Shown here: piece by piece, positions 1-57,519 of the stretch
How the letters are laid out: every line of letters starts with the position of its first letter
Numbering within the stretch: position 1 is the first letter of the stretch
Assembly: GCA_964634365.1 (NCBI GenBank)
Contig: CAZWJU010000001.1
Coordinates: 86,585 to 150,584 of the forward strand
Source of the DNA: an uncultured Candidatus Saccharibacteria bacterium
Lineage (GTDB): Bacteria; Patescibacteriota; Minisyncoccia; Phycocordibacterales; UBA9973
DNA length: 64,000 nucleotides
Direction of reading: 5' to 3'
The notes under the pieces: model-generated
What the model was told of the DNA's origin: nothing
Database searches by the model: none
The model's input: only the letters and a program-made list of their open reading frames with translations
Made by a program: the position numbers and the translations under genes

Positions 1-3000
1 GAAGTAGATAGTTCAACAGGGTCTCTTGTTTATAATTATCCAATCTACACAGCTCCCGGAAGAAATAATTTAACTCCAGAACTTTCTCTTTCATACAATT
101 CATCCACAGTAAATAATACTTCGATTGCAGGATTTGGTTGGAATATAGGTATACAGAGTATTGAAAGACTTAATAAAGATGGCGTATATGAATTATACGG
201 AGAAGATAATTTTACGTCTTCCATGTCAGGTGAATTAATTGGGGTTGATGCTACCAATTATGTATCAAAAGTTGAATCTGGAGATTTTATTTCATATGCA
301 AAAAGTGGTTCTGGATGGATAGCAAAAGACAAGAACGGTACTGTTTATAGTTTCGGTCTATCTGCTTCTTCAAGACAAGATGATCCTTCTGATAGTTCAA
401 AAGTATACAAGTGGATGATTGATAAGATTGAAGATACTAATGGAAATACAATCATATTTGAATATACAAAAGATAATGGACAAATATATCCAAGTAATAT
501 TTCTTATGTGAACGATGCAGTGGGAGCTATGACTATGGATATAGATTTTACTCTTATTTCCAATAGTCATCCATACAAAGAATACAAAACAGGTTTTGCT
601 GTAAAGAATAATTACCTAATAGACCAGATAACTATGTCAGTGGCAGGTTCATGGTTTTTAAAATACGATCTTGATTATACATATAGTTACCCAAACAACA
701 GAGCCCTTCTTTCTTCTATAGAAACCACAGGTAGAGATTCATCTTTAAATGAAGTAACGCAGGATCCAGTTGAATTTGAATATCAGCAATGGAGTTCAAA
801 TTGGATCGAAGATACTACATGGGAATCTCTTTTTCCGTATTATTCACCATCTTTATCTATCGGTTCTTATTCCTTTGGCGAAATAAACGGAGATGGATTG
901 CTCGATGTTGTTTGTGGAAAAGCATATCTGGGAGGTTACTGTTCAAATGACAATCCTGTAGTTGCTATAAACAACGGTGATGGATGGGAATCTTCCACCT
1001 TTGGATTCCCGGAAAAACCAGATGTACCTACGCAAAGAGAGAGGTTTATAACTTCTAGTGGTGAAGATAGTGGGCTAAGATTTTTTGATGTCAACGGAGA
1101 TAATTTGACTGATTTTGTGAGATCGACTGCTGATGGTTCATATGTATATATAAATGATGGTACAGAATGGGTTTATGATGCTTCGTGGGATATGATCCTT
1201 CCTTTTTCTGGAGGATATACAATACCAGGATCTTATTCTTTTGGAGATGTAAATGGAGATGGCCTTATAGATGTTGCATGTGCACAGGGGCAGTCTGATC
1301 ATAATTGCAACACATCGAATCCTTATTGGACGCTCGTTAATACAGGGTCTGGTTGGGAAAATACTGAAAACTATGGAGGAAGTGACGCGCTCGTAAGTTC
1401 TACCGAAGAAGATACTGGGGTGAGAATGGTAGATGTAAACGGCGACGGTCTAGTCGATTTCATGCGTGCAAAAAATTCTGATAACGAAACTTATATAAAC
1501 ACAGGCAATGGATACGTTGTGGATCCAGTCTGGGACTCACCACTTCCTTTTGTCGATAGCCTTACAATCCCTGGCTCAATTTCTTTTGGAGACGTAAACG
1601 GTGACGGATTAATTGATATCGCATGTGCACAAGGACAATCGGATCATTACTGCAATACATCTAATCCACAAGATATATACATAAACAATGGTGCTGGGTG
1701 GTCGGCTCAACATGTATATGGTGGACCAGATTCTTTTGTTGATGAAAGCGAAGAAGATACTGGGGTAAGAATGATGGATATAAATGGCGATGGGTTAATG
1801 GATTTTATCAGATCATATGAATCTGGAGGTCTACAAACAGATGTAAATATAAACGGAGGATTGAAGACAGATTTACTAAAAACAATCACTTCTTCTTCTG
1901 GAGCCGTTGCTTCTTTTGAATATAAACCTAGTACTCAGTATTTAGATGGATCAGGGGATTTGTTAAACAGCACTCTCCCTATAACCGTAGATACAGTAAA
2001 TAGCATCACGACTGATGATGGTTTTGGGAATGAATCCACAGAAACTTATACATATGCAGATGGTTTTTATTATTTCAACACACCTCACGATCGTAAATTT
2101 GCAGGTTTTGGACTTGTTACAAAAAATGATGGAGTTGGAAATGTAACAAAAACATATTTTCATCAAGGTAATGTCACCGATACTGCAAATGGTGAATATG
2201 ACGATCATATTTCAAAAGCAGGAAGACCTTACAGGGTAGAAGAATATAACGACTCCAATGACTTATATCGTTTGACGGTAAATAAGTGGGATAAATATAA
2301 TATCGGAACTAATCATGATTTTGTAAAGTTAGTCAGGAGTACAATACTAAATTATGATGGTGACGCCGATCATAAAGATACTGCAACTGAATATACTTAC
2401 GATAATGCAAATGGAAATCTTCTAACTAGCATAAACTGGGGCGAAGTTACAGCTTCCACAGATGGGTCATTTACAGATACAGGTAGTGACAAGTCAACAG
2501 AGACATCAACCTATACTTCGAATATTGGGGCAAATATTTTAGGCCTTCCTTCGCAAATTACTACTGTCGATCAGTCTGCAAATAAGGTTAACGAAACTAG
2601 ATATTTCTATGACAATCAGACATTTGGCAATGTGACAGATGGAAATATTACAAAAGAACAAAAATGGGTTTCTGGTACAACATACCAGACATGGAAAAAG
2701 TCATATAATGCAAATGGAACAGTAGCAACTGAAACAGATCCAAGAAATAAGGTTACTGCCTACACAACATATGATTCATATGGATTGTATCCGCTAACAG
2801 TTACCAATCCATTATCACAGACAACAACATATTCCTATGATTACTCTTCTGGAAAAGCCATCGAAGTAACTGATGGCAACGGATCAAAAAAAGAAATGGT
2901 TCTTGACGGATTCGATCGTCCACTTGAAGAAAAAATTTCTGATCCAACCAGTGGAAGTCAGGTAACCAAGACTACATATGCATACAACGATACATCTTTC

Positions 3001-52180: not shown

Positions 52181-52591
52181 TTAATTTTTTATTTTCATGA
52201 CCTCTGCATGCAGGAGGTAGTAAAAGTTCGCACCATTTCTTACTACCATACCCGAGGTTATGTAAACAATCTCAGCACCACGTTTTATCCTGCGTCTGTT
52301 CATGCGCAGGACTGCATCTTCGTATGCTTCATACGGGTTTGCGCCGACTCCGATTTCGGACAAGTTTTTCCGGTAAGAAAAACAATTTATCTCATTTGGA
52401 ATTAGATCATCAGCGTCTTCTGGCCAAGCCGTTTGAAATGCTTTTTTAGGCCTACCCCAATACATAGCTCCCCAGAAATTAAATACTATATGTTTTCTGT
52501 CATCCTCGAGTTTCTCTGGGATGTTCGGGATGATGCCAAATAGGCTGATTACTTCAAGTCTTCTCTGGTCTTCTTTTGTAGTATCTTTCAT
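52181..52591 (-). CDS. hypothetical protein (136 aa)
   Basis: ORF bounded by a terminator. No family recognised. Confidence 0.4.
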   Translation of the reverse strand: MKDTTKEDQRRLEVISLFGIIPNIPEKLEDDRKHIVFNFWGAMYWGRPKKAFQTAWPEDADDLIPNEINCFSYRKNLSEIGVGANPYEAYEDAVLRMNRRRIKRGAEIVYITSGMVVRNGANFYYLLHAEVMKIKN

Positions 52592-52709
52592 CTGTAACTT
52601 TTTTCAAACAATACACTTCATTGGTGTATTTGTCAAAGATTAATCCATCCCGCCTCGTATCCTCGAGGCGGCTTTCTCTAACCCAAACCCCGTTGTTTTG
52701 TGAGGGGAT

Positions 52710-53069
52710 TTGTGGGATGATAGGGCCATGGAACCAAGGTTTGAGGAACTAAAGGCGAGAATACAGAAATTCTGTGATGACCGTGACTGGTCGCAATTTC
52801 ACGATCCGAAAAACCTTGCTATTTCACTCAATTTGGAAGCTTCAGAAGTCCTCGAACTCTATCAGTGGACAAAGGACAATCAACTCAAACCTGAACGCGC
52901 TGGAAAGATAAACGAGGAACTCGCGGATGTTTTCTATTGGCTTATCATGCTTTCAAATCACTACAAGATAGATCTTCTCGAAGCTCTACAAAAGAAAATG
53001 GACGAGAATGAGACAAAGTATCCTGTAGAAAAAGCGAAAGGAAATTCCGCAAAATATAACGAACTATAA
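52710..53069 (+). CDS. MazG-like nucleoside triphosphate pyrophosphohydrolase (small all-alpha NTP-PPase)
   Basis: LKARIQKFCDDRDWSQFHDPKNLAISLNLEASEVLELYQW and EELADVFYWLIMLSNHYKIDL match the MazG/HisE-type EExxE/D motifs. First gene of a 5-gene same-strand cluster. Confidence 0.7.
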   Translation: MWDDRAMEPRFEELKARIQKFCDDRDWSQFHDPKNLAISLNLEASEVLELYQWTKDNQLKPERAGKINEELADVFYWLIMLSNHYKIDLLEALQKKMDENETKYPVEKAKGNSAKYNEL

Positions 53070-53070
53070 A

Positions 53071-54651
53071 ATGTCAGAAATTCAGTCATTCAAATTTAAC
53101 AAAGATTATTTTCATCAAATACGAGAATATCGCTTTGGTAAAAATTGGCCTGCTGTTTATATTATCGAAAACAAAAAAGAAGTGTACGTTGGCGAATCGA
53201 CGAGTGTATACAGCAGAAGTCGACAGCATTACGACAATCCAGAACGCAGAAAATTAAATACGATTCATGTTCTCAGTGATGAAGAATTCAATAAATCAGC
53301 AGCACTCGATATAGAGTCATGGCTTATACAGTACATGTCCGCAGATGGAGTATTTACTCTTCAAAATGGAAACGGTGGGATGCAAAACCACAACTATTTT
53401 GATAGAGAAAAATACAAAGCAAAATTTGAACTTGCTTGGGAAAAACTCCGAAAACTTGGTCTTGCTCGTAATACTCTTACAGATCTAAAAAATAGTGATC
53501 TATTTAAATATTCACCTTACAAAACTCTGACTGAGGATCAGCTTGTTGTTGCAGAAGAAATATACAAATACATAAAGTCGGGAGAAAAAAGAACTATTAT
53601 CGTAAACGGTAAGCCTGGTACAGGGAAAACAATTCTTGCAACTTTTCTTTTCAAGTATTTGAAAGAGCAAGAAGAAACAAGGAATCTTTCAATTGCTTTG
53701 GTGGTGCCTATGACGTCGCTTCGTCAAACTGTAAAAAAGGTTTTTAGTAAAATAAAAGGCCTTTCTGCTTCGATGGTTATTGGTCCAAATGAGGCGACTC
53801 AAAAATACTATGATTTGCTTATTATAGACGAAGCACACCGCCTGCAAAGAAGAAAAAATATTATGGGAATGGGTGCATATGACAATATAAACAGACGACT
53901 TGGTCTCGGAAAAGAAAATACTCAGCTCGACTGGATAGTGAGGTCTTCAAAGAATCAAATATTTTTCTATGATGAAAACCAAAGTGTAAAACCATCAGAT
54001 GTAAGAAGTGAAGATTTCAAAAAACTTAATGCAAAGCACTACACACTCACAACTCAAATGCGCGTTGCAGCGGGGGAAGAGTATATCGAATTCATAGAAA
54101 GTGTATTTGACTTGAAACCTATAAAGAAAAAGGATTTTGGAGACTATGAATTCAAAATATACGACGACATCCACAAAATGTTTGCGGATATAAAAGAAAA
54201 AGACAAAAAGCATGGACTTTCTCGTGTGGTTGCTGGCTATGCTTGGCCATGGCATACAAAACCGGGAAGAAATTCTTCACAAAAGCATGATATTGAGATC
54301 AACGGACTCAAGGCTGTTTGGAATTCGACTGCGACTGATTGGGTTAATTCTAAGAATGCTATCAACGAAGTTGGTTGTATCCACACAGTACAAGGTTATG
54401 ATCTTAATTATGTTGGAGTAATAATTGGCCCGGAGTTTGGTTATGATCCAGATAAAAAGAAGTTTTTTGTAGACAAAGAAAAATATTTTGATAGAAATGG
54501 TCGAGCAGGAATTCAAGATCCAGCGGAGCTCGAGCAATACATAAAAAATATTTATAAAACACTTCTAACAAGAGGGATAAAGGGTACGTTTATTTATATA
54601 AGTAATGATAATCTTAGAAAGTATATGGACTATTTTTTAAACCAACGTTAA
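53071..54651 (+). CDS. GIY-YIG nuclease domain fused to DUF2075-like (Schlafen-helicase-like) P-loop ATPase
   Basis: N-terminal PAVYIIENKKEVYVGESTSVYSRSRQHY plus downstream R/E/N residues is GIY-YIG-like. Walker A IVNGKPGTGKTILA, Walker B LLIIDEAHRL. 526 aa. 2-nt gap from the MazG-like gene. Confidence 0.7.
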   Translation: MSEIQSFKFNKDYFHQIREYRFGKNWPAVYIIENKKEVYVGESTSVYSRSRQHYDNPERRKLNTIHVLSDEEFNKSAALDIESWLIQYMSADGVFTLQNGNGGMQNHNYFDREKYKAKFELAWEKLRKLGLARNTLTDLKNSDLFKYSPYKTLTEDQLVVAEEIYKYIKSGEKRTIIVNGKPGTGKTILATFLFKYLKEQEETRNLSIALVVPMTSLRQTVKKVFSKIKGLSASMVIGPNEATQKYYDLLIIDEAHRLQRRKNIMGMGAYDNINRRLGLGKENTQLDWIVRSSKNQIFFYDENQSVKPSDVRSEDFKKLNAKHYTLTTQMRVAAGEEYIEFIESVFDLKPIKKKDFGDYEFKIYDDIHKMFADIKEKDKKHGLSRVVAGYAWPWHTKPGRNSSQKHDIEINGLKAVWNSTATDWVNSKNAINEVGCIHTVQGYDLNYVGVIIGPEFGYDPDKKKFFVDKEKYFDRNGRAGIQDPAELEQYIKNIYKTLLTRGIKGTFIYISNDNLRKYMDYFLNQR

Positions 54652-54663
54652 TTTTTAAGTGTA

Positions 54664-55734
54664 ATGAAGCTGATACATCAAAGTGAAAAATATTTAAGAT
54701 ATTCCAGACGAATCGCTCGGAAAGCTGAAAAGCATAGGCTTCGCAACAAAAATAGAGATAAGTCTGAACGCATAATTACCGCTAAAATGTCTCCAAAACA
54801 GAGACAAGAGTGGAATGCAAAAAAGCAATATAAAGCGGTAGTAAAAGCTCCTGTGAATTTATCTTTTCTCGATGACCCAGAATCAGTAACCGAATTTATA
54901 ACTAAGACAGAAAAAATTATTCAAGGTAGTCCATCTTTGTACTTTGATATGCGACAAGTAAGAAAGATCGATTACCCTACAATAGCAGCACTTCTCGCAG
55001 TTACGTACCGCTCAGTAAAAAGTGGTATAAAAATTAACGGTAATTTTCCAGATGACAATACATCGAAAAGTATTCTTATGAAATCTGGATTTTTATATAC
55101 AATGTTCAGTAAAAATCCCGATGCAGGCCATAAACATGATATCAATGCTGATAATCAGTTGTTTACGTTAGATACGGCCGATCTAAAGGTTGTTGCTGAG
55201 ATAATTAAGTATGTCTCGATAGCTCTTTTTTCAAAAGAAAAAAAGCTTCCTGGATTAAAACTGATTCTGGGTGAACTAATGGATAACACAAGAAATCATG
55301 CTGCAAAATCACCCAATGTCCCTGAAAGATGGTGGTTATCAATAAATTACGACCGTAGTTTTAAAAAGGTTAGTTTTGTATTTATAGACTATGGTGTTGG
55401 GATATTTACCAGTCTTTCACAAAAAACAGAAGATCACGCAGTAAAGCGTTTATGGCTTAAGGCACAATTAATTTTTGGATCAGAAGCTACAGATAGACAT
55501 TTAAAAGCAATAGTTACAGAATCTGCTGGAAAAATACATAAACTTCCCGGTGGGCACGGTCAAGGTATTTATGGTATATACCAGTCTCTTCAAAGATCAG
55601 AAGTCGAGAAACTTTTTATTATAAGCAATAACGCCTTTGGTAATATTAGAGATGATGATTATAAAAAATTAAGGAACGAACTAAATGGAACATTGTATTA
55701 CTGGGAGATTTGTGATAAGAATATAAATTTATAG
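54664..55734 (+). CDS. GHKL-superfamily ATPase (histidine-kinase/RsbW-like HATPase_c) with possible N-terminal STAS-like region
   Basis: N-box ILGELMDNTRNHA, G1 box FVFIDYGVGIF, G2 box GGHGQGIYGI. Basic N-terminal 50 aa. Region 60-130 (VNLSFLDD...DYPTIAALLAV...GIKINGNFPDD) is STAS-like. Confidence 0.55.
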   Translation: MKLIHQSEKYLRYSRRIARKAEKHRLRNKNRDKSERIITAKMSPKQRQEWNAKKQYKAVVKAPVNLSFLDDPESVTEFITKTEKIIQGSPSLYFDMRQVRKIDYPTIAALLAVTYRSVKSGIKINGNFPDDNTSKSILMKSGFLYTMFSKNPDAGHKHDINADNQLFTLDTADLKVVAEIIKYVSIALFSKEKKLPGLKLILGELMDNTRNHAAKSPNVPERWWLSINYDRSFKKVSFVFIDYGVGIFTSLSQKTEDHAVKRLWLKAQLIFGSEATDRHLKAIVTESAGKIHKLPGGHGQGIYGIYQSLQRSEVEKLFIISNNAFGNIRDDDYKKLRNELNGTLYYWEICDKNINL

Positions 55735-55746
55735 TATAATAAAATT

Positions 55747-56079
55747 ATGATAGTTATATCAGTAGCCAAAGATTTCTCTAAAACCCCAGGCTTTAGATAC
55801 AGAAGTCAGAGTCCAGATACTTCTGGAGAACAATTTAGAGACGAGATTCTTGAACCGAAGTATCTAGAAGCTGTTTCAAATGGAGAAAAACTTCAGGTCA
55901 TTTTGGATGGCACTGATGGGTATCTTACTAGTTTTATTGAAGAGTCTTTTGGTGGGCTACAGAGAAAAAATTCTAAAAATAATATTCTCAATTCTATTGA
56001 AATAATCTCAAATGATGAAAGGCACTGGATTGAGGATATAAAACGCTATGTCAAAGAAGCTCTCGAAAAATCAAAATAA
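55747..56079 (+). CDS. small STAS-like protein (DUF4325-like)
   Basis: 110 aa. PGFRYR...GEQFRDEIL...LQVILDGTDGYLTSFIEESFGGL fits the DUF4325 pattern (G.R...GE.FR, v.lDf.gv.g.sSSF.dE.fg.L). Confidence 0.5.
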   Translation: MIVISVAKDFSKTPGFRYRSQSPDTSGEQFRDEILEPKYLEAVSNGEKLQVILDGTDGYLTSFIEESFGGLQRKNSKNNILNSIEIISNDERHWIEDIKRYVKEALEKSK

Positions 56080-56668
56080 CTACCTATTCTCTATTTTGGT
56101 AGGGGTTTTTTTCGGATCCTTAACCTTTTTTATACTATTTGCTTCATTCAATTCTTTTAGGGTAAATACAGAAATTAGTTTTGGGGTTAATCCAATTGAT
56201 TTTATTTCGCTTTTAATTAATACAATTTTGGTGATGTATGTGTTGCGGACTCTTAGTCGTAAAGATGATAATGATAAGGTCGAGCGAGAATTACTCATTG
56301 GATATTTTACTAAATTTGAAGATGACTTCAGTAGTGGTATCCATAGAATGACCTCTTCCTGTGGTATTGAAGGAGAAGAAGTTTCGGCTTTTTTTAAAAA
56401 ACATAGCATGTATCTACAAGAACTTATAGACTTATCAGAAGATCATCGGCCAGAAAATGCCCCAAACTTAGGATCTTTACAATCTAGTTTTAGTGAAATT
56501 TTAGACCTTTTATCTAATACTCCTCGTGAGGGAGAAATTGAAGATGGAGTACGTATAGAAAATGGTTATATTTTTTATTCCCCACGACATCTAGCAGAAA
56601 TTACTAAAAGTATGGGAAAATTTAAAAAAGCAGTATTTAATGTTAGTGTTTGTATAAATAGATCTTGA
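56048..56668 (+). CDS. hypothetical 2-TM membrane protein (206 aa), last gene of the cluster
   Basis: Start overlaps the end of the DUF4325-like gene. Two N-terminal TM helices, then a soluble C-terminal domain. Confidence 0.4.
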   Translation: MSKKLSKNQNNYLFSILVGVFFGSLTFFILFASFNSFRVNTEISFGVNPIDFISLLINTILVMYVLRTLSRKDDNDKVERELLIGYFTKFEDDFSSGIHRMTSSCGIEGEEVSAFFKKHSMYLQELIDLSEDHRPENAPNLGSLQSSFSEILDLLSNTPREGEIEDGVRIENGYIFYSPRHLAEITKSMGKFKKAVFNVSVCINRS

Positions 56669-56763
56669 TTTTTTAAATACACCCAACAAGTTTTTACCTT
56701 TCCAAATTATCACTTCTTATATTTACAGAACGAATAATTTGATTATATACTTGCTAAATAGCT

Positions 56764-56784
56764 CTTTAATAAAATGACAGAGGG
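56764..56784. repeat. left copy of 21-bp inverted repeat CTCT(T/C)TAATAAAATGACAGAG flanking the yegP-like gene
   Basis: CTCTTTAATAAAATGACAGAG here; reverse complement CTCTCTGTCATTTTATTAGAGAG at 57123-57145. Confidence 0.6.
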
Positions 56785-56925
56785 TAAGGCCATTTCCGGA
56801 TAATTTTGGACTTTATCTACTTAGAAGGTCCCGGATAGATACTTTGAATAACTCAAGGTCTTTATTCGGGGATCCATTCTAGGTCGATACCCCAATTTAC
56901 TAGAAAATAATCTTTAAATAATTTT

Positions 56926-57105
56926 ATGAAATTTGAAATTTATAAAGATAGCCGTGGTGATTTCCGGTGGAGATTCGTTTCTTCAAATGGAAAAATCATT
57001 GCAGACGGTTCTGAAGGTTATTCTTCAGAAGCAAATGCTATTAATGGTATTAATATCATTAGAGAATACGCGGCTGGTGCAAAAATCTATCGACTTAACT
57101 ATTAG
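56926..57105 (+). CDS. YegP/DUF1508 (UPF0339) family small protein
   Basis: Absent from the ORF track (59 aa). MKFEIYKDSRGDFRWRFVSSNGKIIADGSEGYSSEANAINGINIIREYAAGAKIYRL matches the DUF1508 repeat (F...DK.G.YRFRL.A.NGE.IA.SEGY.SK..A..GIESVK.NA). Confidence 0.7.
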   Translation: MKFEIYKDSRGDFRWRFVSSNGKIIADGSEGYSSEANAINGINIIREYAAGAKIYRLNY

Positions 57106-57122
57106 TTAATTGATAGATGAAA

Positions 57123-57145
57123 CTCTCTGTCATTTTATTAGAGAG
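57123..57145. repeat. right copy of 21-bp inverted repeat; also forms a local hairpin/terminator after the yegP-like gene
   Basis: CTCTCTGTCATTTTATTAGAGAG followed by TTTCC. Confidence 0.6.
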
Positions 57146-57222
57146 TTTCCGCTATGTACAAATCTTGTTTTGCTAGTTATGCATTTAAAACTTAATTTTT
57201 TGATACAATTAGATTGTAATTT

Positions 57223-57519
57223 ATGATCAAAGAATACATGCAATATCTGAAAGGTAATCCGGAGAGGTTGTGGTTCAAGCGCAAGCTCTATGGCTGGGGT
57301 TGGACTCCGGTTACATGGCAAGGGTGGGTTGTGATACTTATATACGTCGCACTTGTGATGCTCTTTGCCTTTACCATCGACGAAACTTCACCTACTCGCG
57401 AAGTAGTCTTCACTGGCATGTTGCCCATAGCCATACTGACATTTGCGCTTATCCGTATCTGCTACCGGTTCGGCGAGAAGCCTCGCTGGCAATGGGGAAA
57501 AGTGAAAGAAGATAAATAG
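57223..57519 (+). CDS. small membrane protein (98 aa)
   Basis: Two hydrophobic helices. Preferred over the overlapping alternative-frame ORF. Confidence 0.4.
   Translation: MIKEYMQYLKGNPERLWFKRKLYGWGWTPVTWQGWVVILIYVALVMLFAFTIDETSPTREVVFTGMLPIAILTFALIRICYRFGEKPRWQWGKVKEDK

Follow-up and report, generated by a model that had tools for sequence, protein, structure and literature searches.

The 64,000-nt stretch of DNA analysed here (the window) carries five co-directional open reading frames (ORFs) on the + strand, and the gene boundaries and all five domain assignments proposed in the first-pass annotation were upheld by an ORF check and by Pfam, AlphaFold2 (AF2), hydropathy and residue conservation analyses, respectively. 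The GC palindrome upstream of the genes and the 24-nt inverted repeat (IR) around yegP, both described there, were likewise present. The locus comprises the following features:

52650..52671, no strand assigned: GC-rich palindrome CCGCCTCG-N6-CGAGGCGG between a divergent 136-aa ORF and gene 1
52710-54651, + strand: module A, MazG-like pyrophosphatase and GIY-YIG/DUF2075 protein
52710..53069, + strand: gene 1, MazG-like all-alpha NTP pyrophosphatase (PF12643, residue conservation, gene 2 as neighbour)
53071..54651, + strand: gene 2, GIY-YIG nuclease with DUF2075/Schlafen-group-3 helicase-like P-loop ATPase (Pfam, PADLOC, catalytic residues)
54652..54663, no strand assigned: module junction of 12 nt (tblastx synteny and sequence)
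54664-56668, + strand: module B, genes 3-5, kinase, STAS protein and membrane protein
54664..55734, + strand: gene 3, predicted CapK/VapK-type kinase (AF2, Foldseek, hhalign, invariant N, G1 and G2 boxes)
55747..56079, + strand: gene 4, DUF4325 STAS protein, VapS-like (Pfam, PDB sequence match, S62 conservation)
56048..56668, + strand: gene 5, 206-aa membrane protein with two transmembrane (TM) helices (hydropathy, AF2, homologous third gene, alignment)
56762..57145, + strand: yegP/DUF1508 cassette outside both modules (gene 56926-57105; 24-nt IR 56762-56785 / 57122-57145)

The genes are tightly packed, with 1 nt between genes 1 and 2, 12 nt between genes 2 and 3 as well as between genes 3 and 4, and an overlap of 32 nt between genes 4 and 5. 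The identical five-gene order was found on two more metagenome contigs of the same organism. The GC content of the triad formed by genes 3-5 is 33% as compared to 39% in the upstream flank. A divergent promoter had been claimed upstream of gene 1, but the sigma-70 scan of this region gave a chance-level score, and no Bacteroidota-type TAnnTTTG element was detected on the + strand between 52141 and 55370. Neither a terminator-like site nor a recognisable promoter was found between genes 2 and 3. Since no separate promoter was recognised for the triad in the window, it may be co-transcribed with genes 1 and 2, which leaves room for local functional coupling. The palindrome is a candidate operator or terminator and is assigned to neither module.

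Gene 3 encodes a basic N-terminal helical hairpin (residues 1-57, with 20 K/R versus 5 D/E), a STAS-like domain (residues ~58-170) and a SpoIIAB-like GHKL Ser/Thr kinase domain (residues ~175-350). Pfam recognised HATPase_c at E=0.048 only. The AF2 model (pLDDT 84, pTM 0.81) matched SpoIIAB with a Foldseek probability of 1.0 (TM ~0.62-0.65) and STAS domains with a TM of ~0.5, and the N-box residues E204 and N208, the G1 box D242-x-G244-x-G246 and the G2 residues G299 and G301 are invariant in 36/36 relatives. By hhalign, the gene 3 family was matched to CapK with a probability of 96% (E=2e-9), in an alignment spanning half of the STAS domain and the GHKL domain, and to VapK with a probability of 90% (E=1.6e-6). 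No gene 3 counterpart of the ssDNA-sensing residue of CapK/VapK could be mapped in the alignment of relatives, in which Y104 is not conserved.

The product of gene 4 is 110 aa long, ends in a short helix and matches DUF4325 (E=1.9e-11), as does VapS (E=2.7e-17), both above the curated cut-off. VapS was also the best PDB sequence match of the gene 4 profile (9z7o_A, E=0.05, hmmsearch); the hhalign similarity between the two is weak (E ~5e-4 to 9e-4), and the suggested link draws mainly on the common Pfam membership and the architecture. The motif G58-Y-x-[TS]61-S62-F63 contains a serine, S62, that is present in 36/36 relatives and aligns with S54 of CapS, the proven phospho-acceptor (PMC13373217), while S48 of VapS aligns with T61 of gene 4. 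S62 is a candidate phospho-acceptor, and gene 4 a candidate antitoxin and kinase substrate; neither a wHTH nor any other DNA-binding domain was found in it.

Gene 5 has two N-terminal TM helices (residues ~13-31 and ~45-63), seen in the hydropathy profile and in the AF2 model (pLDDT 79), followed by a helical bundle and, at the C-terminus, the motif INR[SKN]. By the positive-inside rule, both termini and the helical bundle are predicted to be cytoplasmic. A homologue is carried on a Leptospira plasmid (E=7.6e-12). Gene 5 stands where VapKSC encodes the VapC toxin, which makes it a candidate effector by analogy; no match to a PIN domain was obtained. Its fold resembles just generic four-helix bundles and so gives no indication of a pore or a toxin. 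Csx28 of CRISPR-Cas13b (PDB 8GI1) has no sequence similarity to gene 5, and since its match is no better than those of more than 100 unrelated helical bundles, it serves as a lead only.

The conservation of the triad was analyzed in 38 loci with gene 3 relatives, and genes 3 and 4 are adjacent in all of them. A gene 5 homologue lies directly downstream in 29/38 (jackhmmer profile), and seven of the remaining nine carry at that position an ORF of the same size (176-199 aa) with N-terminal hydrophobic helices; the other two have just a 92-aa ORF close to the locus end (L036) and a 126-aa ORF ~190 nt downstream (L024). The reciprocal test starting from gene 5 recovered the triad in 3/3 cases. In most loci, the reading frames of genes 4 and 5 share 4-32 nt, as usual for toxin-antitoxin pairs. 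The triad has a patchy spread, occurring in CPR bacteria, Clostridia, Leptospira plasmids and one archaeon, and its 138 neighbours include genes for recombinases, integrases, relaxases, Hachiman, Thoeris ThsB, restriction-modification (R-M) and SspB. Further settings are a KAP NTPase with Shedu SduA_C, a type I R-M system, a plasmid MNT/HepT pair and a prophage. Several triad loci lie amid housekeeping genes (e.g., L008 and L124), and therefore the enrichment in defence islands, taken from plain neighbour counts, is only suggestive. A membrane-linked signalling or housekeeping role of the triad, for example with gene 5 as a sensor controlling the kinase, is unlikely: gene 5 is the sole possible output domain in the cassette, its helical domain is predicted to be cytoplasmic whereas such sensor domains sit in the periplasm, and the patchy spread, the low GC content relative to the flanks and the frequent recombinase, toxin-antitoxin and defence neighbours form the pattern of a mobile accessory element.

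PADLOC v2.0.0 has no model matching gene 3 or gene 5, and the first-pass annotation had recognised no named system in the locus, a view that for genes 3 and 4 has been overtaken by the description of CapKS and VapKSC (Chambers, Rani, Min, Villa & Corbett, EMBO J 2026, PMC13373217; PDB 9Z7O). Module B shares with VapKSC the gene order kinase, small STAS protein and effector, a kinase composed of STAS and SpoIIAB-like GHKL domains, a STAS protein from DUF4325 (~110-116 aa) that ends in a short helix and carries a fully conserved Ser/Thr where helix 2 begins, the tight gene overlap, and a scattered distribution over phyla, often near other defence or toxin-antitoxin genes. In contrast, the effector of VapKSC is a PIN (VapC) RNase and not a 2-TM helical-bundle membrane protein, VapK lacks the basic hairpin of ~57 residues, and the similarity is remote (hhalign E=1.6e-6 for VapK and ~1e-3 for VapS), with the ssDNA-sensing residue not mapped on gene 3.

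Gene 3 is most similar to CapK, the kinase-then-STAS gene order is common to both systems, the acceptor serine directly precedes a phenylalanine in both (CapS S54-F55, candidate S62-F63 in gene 4), and the triad is occasionally found, like CapKS, just downstream of R-M systems (L123 and L005). However, CapK has an N-terminal HTH in place of the basic hairpin, CapS is a wHTH repressor, and CapKS is followed by a separate immune operon, while gene 5 is the sole conserved downstream gene here. The earlier proposal that the GHKL and STAS proteins form an RsbW/RsbV-type partner pair gained support: the kinase fold (Foldseek probability 1.0 to 1TID/1TH8), the STAS partner fold and the proposed logic of serine phosphorylation on a STAS protein are those of SpoIIAB/SpoIIAA and RsbW/RsbV. 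Differences from these are that the gene 3 kinase is fused to a STAS domain of its own, that the module is mobile and not a fixed regulon component, and that neither a sigma factor partner nor a PP2C phosphatase is among the recurrent neighbours. It is very unlikely that genes 3 and 4 constitute a CapK/CapS-type transcriptional regulator or an RsbW/RsbV-type switch over neighbours such as yegP, with gene 5 as an accessory. Besides the closeness to CapK and the SpoIIAB and STAS folds, this would be favoured by the YegP homologue that follows capKS in 57/443 cases (Chambers et al., PMC13373217), yegP lying 257 nt downstream of gene 5 in the window. Yet gene 4 is without the wHTH that CapS combines with its STAS domain, the conserved third partner is always a membrane protein, and sigma-factor domains (Sigma70_r4) occur in just 2/138 neighbours, with no consistent adjacency. 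Moreover, no yegP relative was present in the 38 triad loci or in 80 loci with gene 2 relatives, so that elsewhere neither module is accompanied by the yegP cassette; a TAnnTTTG element at 56801, inside the cassette, probably provides yegP with its own promoter element.

In module A, gene 1 comprises 119 aa from a TTG start, the gene caller favouring an ATG at 52728 (113 aa, as called in L039/L040). It matches the MazG-like family PF12643 (E=9e-15), and its metal-binding residues E43, E46, E49, E70 and D73 (ExxE...ExxD) are kept in 67-68/68 relatives. Gene 2 consists of a GIY-YIG domain (residues ~29-101), weakly matched in Pfam (1.6e-4), and an ATPase domain (residues 173-510) assigned to SLFN-g3_helicase/DUF2075 (E=1.4e-72); Y30, Y39, G41, R49, E82 and N99 of the former and the Walker A K186 and Walker B D253/E254 of the latter are invariant in 70/70 relatives. 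The architecture is that of Nhi (Bari et al., bioRxiv 10.1101/776245) and Nhi-like proteins (Millman et al., 2022, bioRxiv 10.1101/2022.05.11.491447), single-protein defences with an N-terminal nuclease and a DUF2075 helicase-like ATPase, so that for gene 2, too, the locus resembles a named system. The PADLOC matches to Nhi (2.6e-16) and AbiO (6e-16) are confined to the ATPase region and, being partial, place gene 2 in neither family. Unlike in Nhi, the nuclease is GIY-YIG and not PD-(D/E)XK, a gene 1 relative lies directly upstream of the gene 2 relative in 74/80 loci, and a LexA-type S24 domain seems to be appended in most relatives. In 49/69 gene 2 relatives, the protein is extended C-terminally by more than 100 aa, and Peptidase_S24 was confirmed at the C-terminus of both relatives scanned (L041 and L075). 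Proteins of this family apparently end in S24 as a rule, but the window copy lacks it, being a short form that stops precisely at the boundary between DUF2075 and linker; in L041 (82% identical), the sequence runs on into S24 at this point. Genes 1 and 2 are a separately conserved pair whose mode of action is suggested by the domains only.

No co-occurrence of the two modules was found outside this organism: relatives of genes 1 and 2 occur in 0/38 triad loci and relatives of genes 3-5 in 0/80 loci of the gene 1-gene 2 pair. In tblastx, the similarity to relatives of genes 1 and 2 extends up to 54648, and that to L005, a relative of the triad, begins at ~54644-54652; at the same site L044/L045 carry other cargo after genes 1 and 2, namely a 242-aa ORF and RelB/YafQ. 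We therefore consider it fairly probable that the five genes are two independent, horizontally mobile modules abutting by chance, module B being a VapKSC-like cassette and module A a separate pair. The absence of co-occurrence, which the first-pass annotation itself had named as evidence against a system, applies to the five-gene set, while within each module the genes do co-occur; its view of the pieces as parts of conflict systems was supported. Barely plausible is a lineage-specific composite in which the triad, beginning 12 nt after the end of gene 2, replaced the S24 sensor, with the kinase module signalling to both the nuclease-helicase and gene 5. LexA-type S24 domains are responsive to ssDNA-bound RecA. 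The CapK/VapK kinases are ssDNA-responsive (PMC13373217), which would make the two sensors analogous in function. On the other hand, short forms of gene 2 exist without the triad (L044/45, L060-L074), no S24 remnant was found in the window, a link between genes 4 and 2 was not detectable and the triad is never found with gene 2 elsewhere. A single five-gene defence system, in which the kinase/STAS switch licenses the nuclease or the membrane protein, would accord with the tight packing, the uninterrupted gene 2-gene 3 boundary and the two further contigs, but is hardly tenable and, as a conserved arrangement, already largely refuted by the lack of co-occurrence, the break in similarity, the exchanged cargo and the completeness of each module by itself elsewhere; there is likewise no support for a GIY-YIG/DUF2075 nuclease that is licensed by the kinase.

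Within the two-module reading, we read module B as a phosphorylation-gated membrane toxin-antitoxin/defence module, and the earlier idea of a kinase that licenses the membrane protein by acting on its STAS partner fits the experimentally shown logic of VapKSC (PMC13373217). Following this analogy, we propose that gene 4 would bind the cytoplasmic helical domain of gene 5 and hold it inactive until a stress or infection cue switches on the gene 3 kinase; because of the CapK/VapK precedent and the strongly basic N-terminus of gene 3, this cue is probably a nucleic acid. Gene 3 would then phosphorylate gene 4 on the invariant Ser62 (or Thr61), and phosphorylated gene 4 would release gene 5, which, as a putative toxin, may damage or depolarise the membrane and thereby arrest the infected cell. 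With its conserved triad, invariant kinase motifs and serine, homology of gene 3 to CapK/VapK, membership of gene 4 in the Pfam family of VapS and a membrane protein in place of a PIN domain, module B appears to be an as yet undescribed form of the anti-phage toxin-antitoxin system VapKSC with a membrane effector.

The five co-directional genes g1 to g5 are two independent modules in one variable-cargo hotspot and not one system. Module A comprises the MazG-like gene g1 and g2, which codes for a GIY-YIG nuclease joined to a DUF2075 ATPase, and module B is the triad of the STAS-GHKL kinase gene g3, the DUF4325 STAS protein gene g4 and the membrane protein gene g5.

Features of the g1-g5 locus and its borders (window positions)
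52181-52591, divergent: 136-aa ORF, no family match
52650-52671: GC-rich palindrome between g1 and the divergent 136-aa ORF, 8-bp stem with 7 G-C pairs
52710-53069, + strand: g1, MazG-like (PF12643, E=9e-15)
53071-54651, + strand: g2, DUF2075/SLFN-g3 helicase (PF09848, E=1.4e-72) with a weak GIY-YIG match
54664-55734, + strand: g3, kinase, Pfam GHKL match at E=0.048 only
55747-56079, + strand: g4, 110 aa, DUF4325 (E=1.9e-11) and no other domain
56048-56668, + strand: g5, two hydrophobic N-terminal helices, also in the AlphaFold2 model
56926-57105: yegP (DUF1508), inside a 24-nt, 92% complementary inverted repeat (56762-57145), with a TAnnTTTG element at 56801

The first-pass annotation of this locus was correct in all checkable details: the five + strand ORFs lie where it had placed them, the GC palindrome and the yegP-flanking inverted repeat both exist, the two transmembrane segments called for g5 were confirmed as hydrophobic N-terminal helices, and its domain calls were borne out by profile searches (g1, g2 and g4) or by AlphaFold2/Foldseek and motifs (g3). 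The genes are tightly spaced, with 1 nt between g1 and g2, 12 nt between g2 and g3 as well as between g3 and g4, and a 32-nt overlap of g4 and g5. The g1 metal-binding motifs E46-x-x-E49 and E70-x-x-D73 are kept in 67-68 of 68 relatives, and the GIY-YIG and Walker residues of g2 are all invariant among 70 relatives. In g3, residues E204, N208 (N box), D242, G244, G246 (G1), G299 and G301 (G2) are invariant in 36 relatives; its AlphaFold2 model (pLDDT 84, pTM 0.81) matched the anti-sigma kinase SpoIIAB in Foldseek with a probability of 1.0, and the middle domain of the model matched STAS domains. Residues 1-57 of g3 (54664-54834) form a basic helical hairpin with 20 K/R as compared to 5 D/E, which is kept in most full-length members of the family and may be a nucleic-acid-binding element. 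In g4, which ends in a helix at about residues 92-110, S62 is present in 36/36 sequences and residue 61 is T or S in 35/36. Neither PADLOC nor NCBIfam yielded useful matches to g3, g4 or g5.

The proposal that the five genes make up one novel system was not supported by their distribution elsewhere. All six-frame ORFs of 38 g3 loci, taken from metagenomes and 30 species-representative genomes, were searched with the five window proteins: relatives of g3 and g4 were adjacent in all 38 loci, and relatives of g1 or g2 were found in none. Directly after g4, phmmer detected a g5 homologue in 17 loci, and jackhmmer raised this number to 29; of the remaining nine loci, seven carry in this position a same-sized ORF with one or two hydrophobic N-terminal helices, while the third gene is only a 92-aa ORF near the locus end in L036 and a 126-aa ORF approximately 190 nt downstream in L024. 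Reverse look-up from g5-family proteins gave the same arrangement, with a protein of about 345 aa and a DUF4325 protein directly upstream in 3/3 cases. From the side of g2, 80 metagenomic loci with relatives 43-82% identical to it were compared. In 74 of them, the gene that immediately precedes the g2 relative, on its strand, is MazG-like; the rest are mostly truncated contigs. Neither g3, g4 nor g5 occurs in any of the 80, 58 of which include more than 1.2 kb of downstream sequence. Thus, co-occurrence, which the first-pass annotation had put forward as a check, spoke against the five-gene set and strongly for each sub-module; its view of the genes as parts of conflict modules held, that of a single system did not.

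The boundary between the modules also shows in tblastx comparisons: g1-g2 loci resemble the window only over 52743-54648, and L005, the closest triad locus (g3 84% identical), only over approximately 54644-56701. The GC content of the triad is 33% as compared to 39% in the flank. A conserved 98-aa membrane ORF at 57223-57519 bounds a variable stretch of 54652-57222. In L044/L045 (L045:2585-4693), the place taken in the window by the triad and yegP, between g1-g2 and the 98-aa ORF homologue, is occupied by a 242-aa ORF of unknown function directly after g2 and a RelB/YafQ toxin-antitoxin pair; this different cargo at the same site argues for a variable-cargo hotspot with two independent modules. 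A practical point for genome annotation is that close packing on one strand is no proof that the genes of an operon form one system.

The possibility of a local functional link, such as one in which the triad, in addition to acting on g5, would have taken the place of a C-terminal sensor of g2, has to be weighed against this distribution. An extension of more than 100 aa follows the ATPase in 49 of 69 g2 relatives, and in both relatives scanned it is a LexA-like Peptidase_S24 domain (L041, 4560-6593, E=1.4e-17; L075, 3408-5573, E=1.9e-8). The g2 of the window is devoid of S24 and stops exactly at the linker, and the triad starts 12 nt further on. No promoter was recognised for the triad in the window, where a sigma-70 promoter scan performed at chance level, and so the triad may be transcribed by read-through from g1-g2. 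Insertion of the triad into g2 was considered as well and sought as an S24 remnant downstream of the triad, but none was found there. With no joint occurrence in the 38 triad loci and the 80 g2 loci, replacement of the S24 sensor by the triad is very improbable, and we retain the reading of two modules at one site. Regarding the borders, the 136-aa ORF was not found beside g1-g2 pairs elsewhere. The yegP cassette had been regarded as typical context of a mobile defence island, and yegP follows capKS in 57 of 443 cases (Chambers et al., 2026; PMC13373217); no yegP relative is present in the 38 triad loci, so that yegP is not associated with the triad elsewhere and the idea of the two travelling together was rejected. 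Across the window, the Bacteroidota -7 motif TAnnTTTG occurs 109 times as compared to 73 expected, with 109 reached in 0 of 100 shuffles; this excess suggests a Bacteroidota genome as the origin of the window.

Module A resembles the single-protein defences Nhi and Nhi-like in that an N-terminal nuclease is combined with a DUF2075 helicase-like domain. However, the nuclease of g2 is GIY-YIG and that of Nhi PD-(D/E)XK, the PADLOC matches to Nhi (2.6e-16) and AbiO (6e-16) cover the ATPase region only (residues 141-474), and neither of these models matched g2 over its full length. The LexA-like domain of the relatives suggests self-cleavage upon DNA damage. From these domains we infer a nuclease-helicase effector with a nucleotide-hydrolysing partner, probably under S24 self-cleavage control in most relatives. 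Among 150 neighbour proteins in the flanks of L041-L104, NUDIX hydrolases come up most often beside the MazG and DUF2075 pair (seven proteins), and the PADLOC candidate PDC-S07 matched six of these; the other neighbours include scattered defence-type genes. A literature search for the DUF2075 and MazG pair found no prior description, and a GIY-YIG, DUF2075 and S24 protein that has MazG as its partner seems not to have been described so far. The strongly conserved pair is therefore a candidate defence system in its own right.

Module B was compared with two kinase/STAS systems described recently (Chambers et al., EMBO J 2026; PMC13373217), using the VapK, VapS, CapK and CapS sequences from the supplementary files of that study. 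CapK (HTH-STAS-GHKL) is an ssDNA-activated kinase that phosphorylates CapS (STAS-wHTH) on Ser54; CapS represses immune operons next to it, and the operons downstream of CapKS include Bub, CBASS, Thoeris and yegP, among others. VapKSC is a three-gene toxin-antitoxin defence that protected against phage Bas42 by about 2 logs; its small STAS antitoxin VapS sets the PIN toxin VapC free once VapK (STAS-GHKL) has phosphorylated it on Ser48 (Chambers et al., 2026; PMC13373217). The g3 family (36 members) aligned with CapK at an hhalign probability of 96% (E=2e-9; g3 111-305, CapK 111-313) and with VapK at 90% (E=1.6e-6); as the CapK alignment covers part of the STAS domain, it is more than a generic GHKL match. 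VapS matched DUF4325 (E=2.7e-17), the Pfam family of g4, and was the best match of the g4 profile among 177,635 PDB sequences, albeit a weak one (9z7o_A, E=0.05). Ser62 of g4 aligns with CapS Ser54, and Thr61 with VapS Ser48.

Module B strongly resembles CapKS and VapKSC in its proposed mode of action. [quoted passage not shown] By contrast, g5 is a helical bundle with N-terminal transmembrane segments and not a PIN nuclease; a PIN domain was not found in g5 or its counterparts, and the undetected third genes of divergent loci, considered as PIN/VapC proteins bridging to VapKSC, turned out to be transmembrane proteins. Membership in VapKSC thus fails because the defining PIN toxin is missing. 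With respect to CapKS, the STAS-GHKL part of g3 is homologous to CapK, but the alignment begins only at g3 residue 111, and the N-terminus, according to AlphaFold2 secondary structure, is the basic hairpin in place of the HTH of CapK, VapK having no hairpin. No reliable equivalent of the ssDNA-sensing aromatic residue (CapK W68, VapK F54) was found in g3, where Y104 varies among the 36 sequences and F68 is kept only among close relatives. Furthermore, g4 consists of DUF4325 only, whereas CapS, leaving aside the tag of the construct, has about 180 aa with a wHTH, and g5 is the sole conserved downstream gene, whereas CapKS sit upstream of a separate immune operon; the lack of the wHTH and of that operon precludes membership in CapKS. 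An RsbW/RsbV or SpoIIAB/SpoIIAA switch is disfavoured, since no cognate sigma factor consistently adjoins the triad: none lies near the window locus, and Sigma70_r4 was found in 2 of 138 triad neighbours. In Chambers et al. (2026; PMC13373217), the word 'membrane' refers to reagents and blots only and 'transmembrane' is absent, hence no membrane-effector variant is described there, and a literature search combining STAS, phage defence and transmembrane found no prior description of one. Judged from its sequence, the triad is a putative variant of the CapKS/VapKSC kinase-STAS switch that has a membrane effector and had not been described before.

The kinase family of g3 is not rare. Word-indexed searches with 26 and 4 matches had made g3 and g5 look very rare; this label was dropped because an exhaustive profile search (E<=1e-3) gave 3,055 g3 representatives at 50% clustering, 701 of them at E<=1e-30 and mostly full length. 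With approximately 700 to 3,000 clusters at 50% identity, the family extends over candidate-phyla bacteria, Firmicutes, Bacteroidota, spirochaete plasmids and one archaeon; the closest named relatives of both modules belong to Flavobacteriia/Cytophagia. A scan of IMG/VR with the g3 profile gave no match. In one relative (P0025, 532 aa), a PfkB-family carbohydrate kinase domain (PF00294) is joined to the last 250 residues of the g3 family, which reflects either a genuine fusion or two genes run together in the gene call. The 138 immediate triad neighbours include five serine recombinases, four tyrosine integrases and two Mob relaxases, as well as Hachiman HamA/B, Thoeris ThsB, type II R-M, SspB and PDC candidates. 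In L001, the triad has a KAP NTPase and Shedu SduA_C at its side. Other copies are present in a Helicobacter prophage and on a Leptospira interrogans plasmid; on the latter, an MNT/HepT pair adjoins the triad, and NCBI names the triad genes 'ATP-binding protein', 'STAS-like domain-containing protein' and 'hypothetical protein'. Some triad loci look like housekeeping regions. Taken as raw neighbour counts, this context would fit a mobile conflict module. In L123 (1-5579), a complete type I R-M (hsdR, KilA-N, hsdM, hsdS) directly precedes the triad, with IS110 and IS21 elements after them, and in L005 (1-8999) a type I R-M lies a few genes upstream, which parallels the R-M association reported for capKS.

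There is direct support for a conserved triad with an intact kinase, for the invariance of the putative acceptor, for the homology and for g5 as a membrane protein. By analogy with CapKS and VapKSC, we propose that g4 would hold the cytoplasmic domain of g5 inactive until a cue activates g3; this cue is probably nucleic acid, since CapK is activated by ssDNA and the N-terminal hairpin of g3 is strongly basic. The kinase would then phosphorylate g4 at Ser62 or Thr61, upon which g4 would dissociate and g5 could perturb the membrane. It is quite possible, albeit tentative, that the triad represents a widespread unnamed anti-phage abortive-infection system composed of a nucleic-acid-activated CapK-family kinase, a STAS antitoxin and a new family of membrane-disrupting toxins. 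If so, a membrane effector would be a third kind of output under the same phosphorylation switch, extending the discovery of CapKS and VapKSC, and in this new toxin family phosphorylation, not proteolysis, would remove the antitoxin. The kinase/STAS switch would then serve as a plug-in trigger of general use, with outputs as different as a repressor, an RNase and a membrane toxin.
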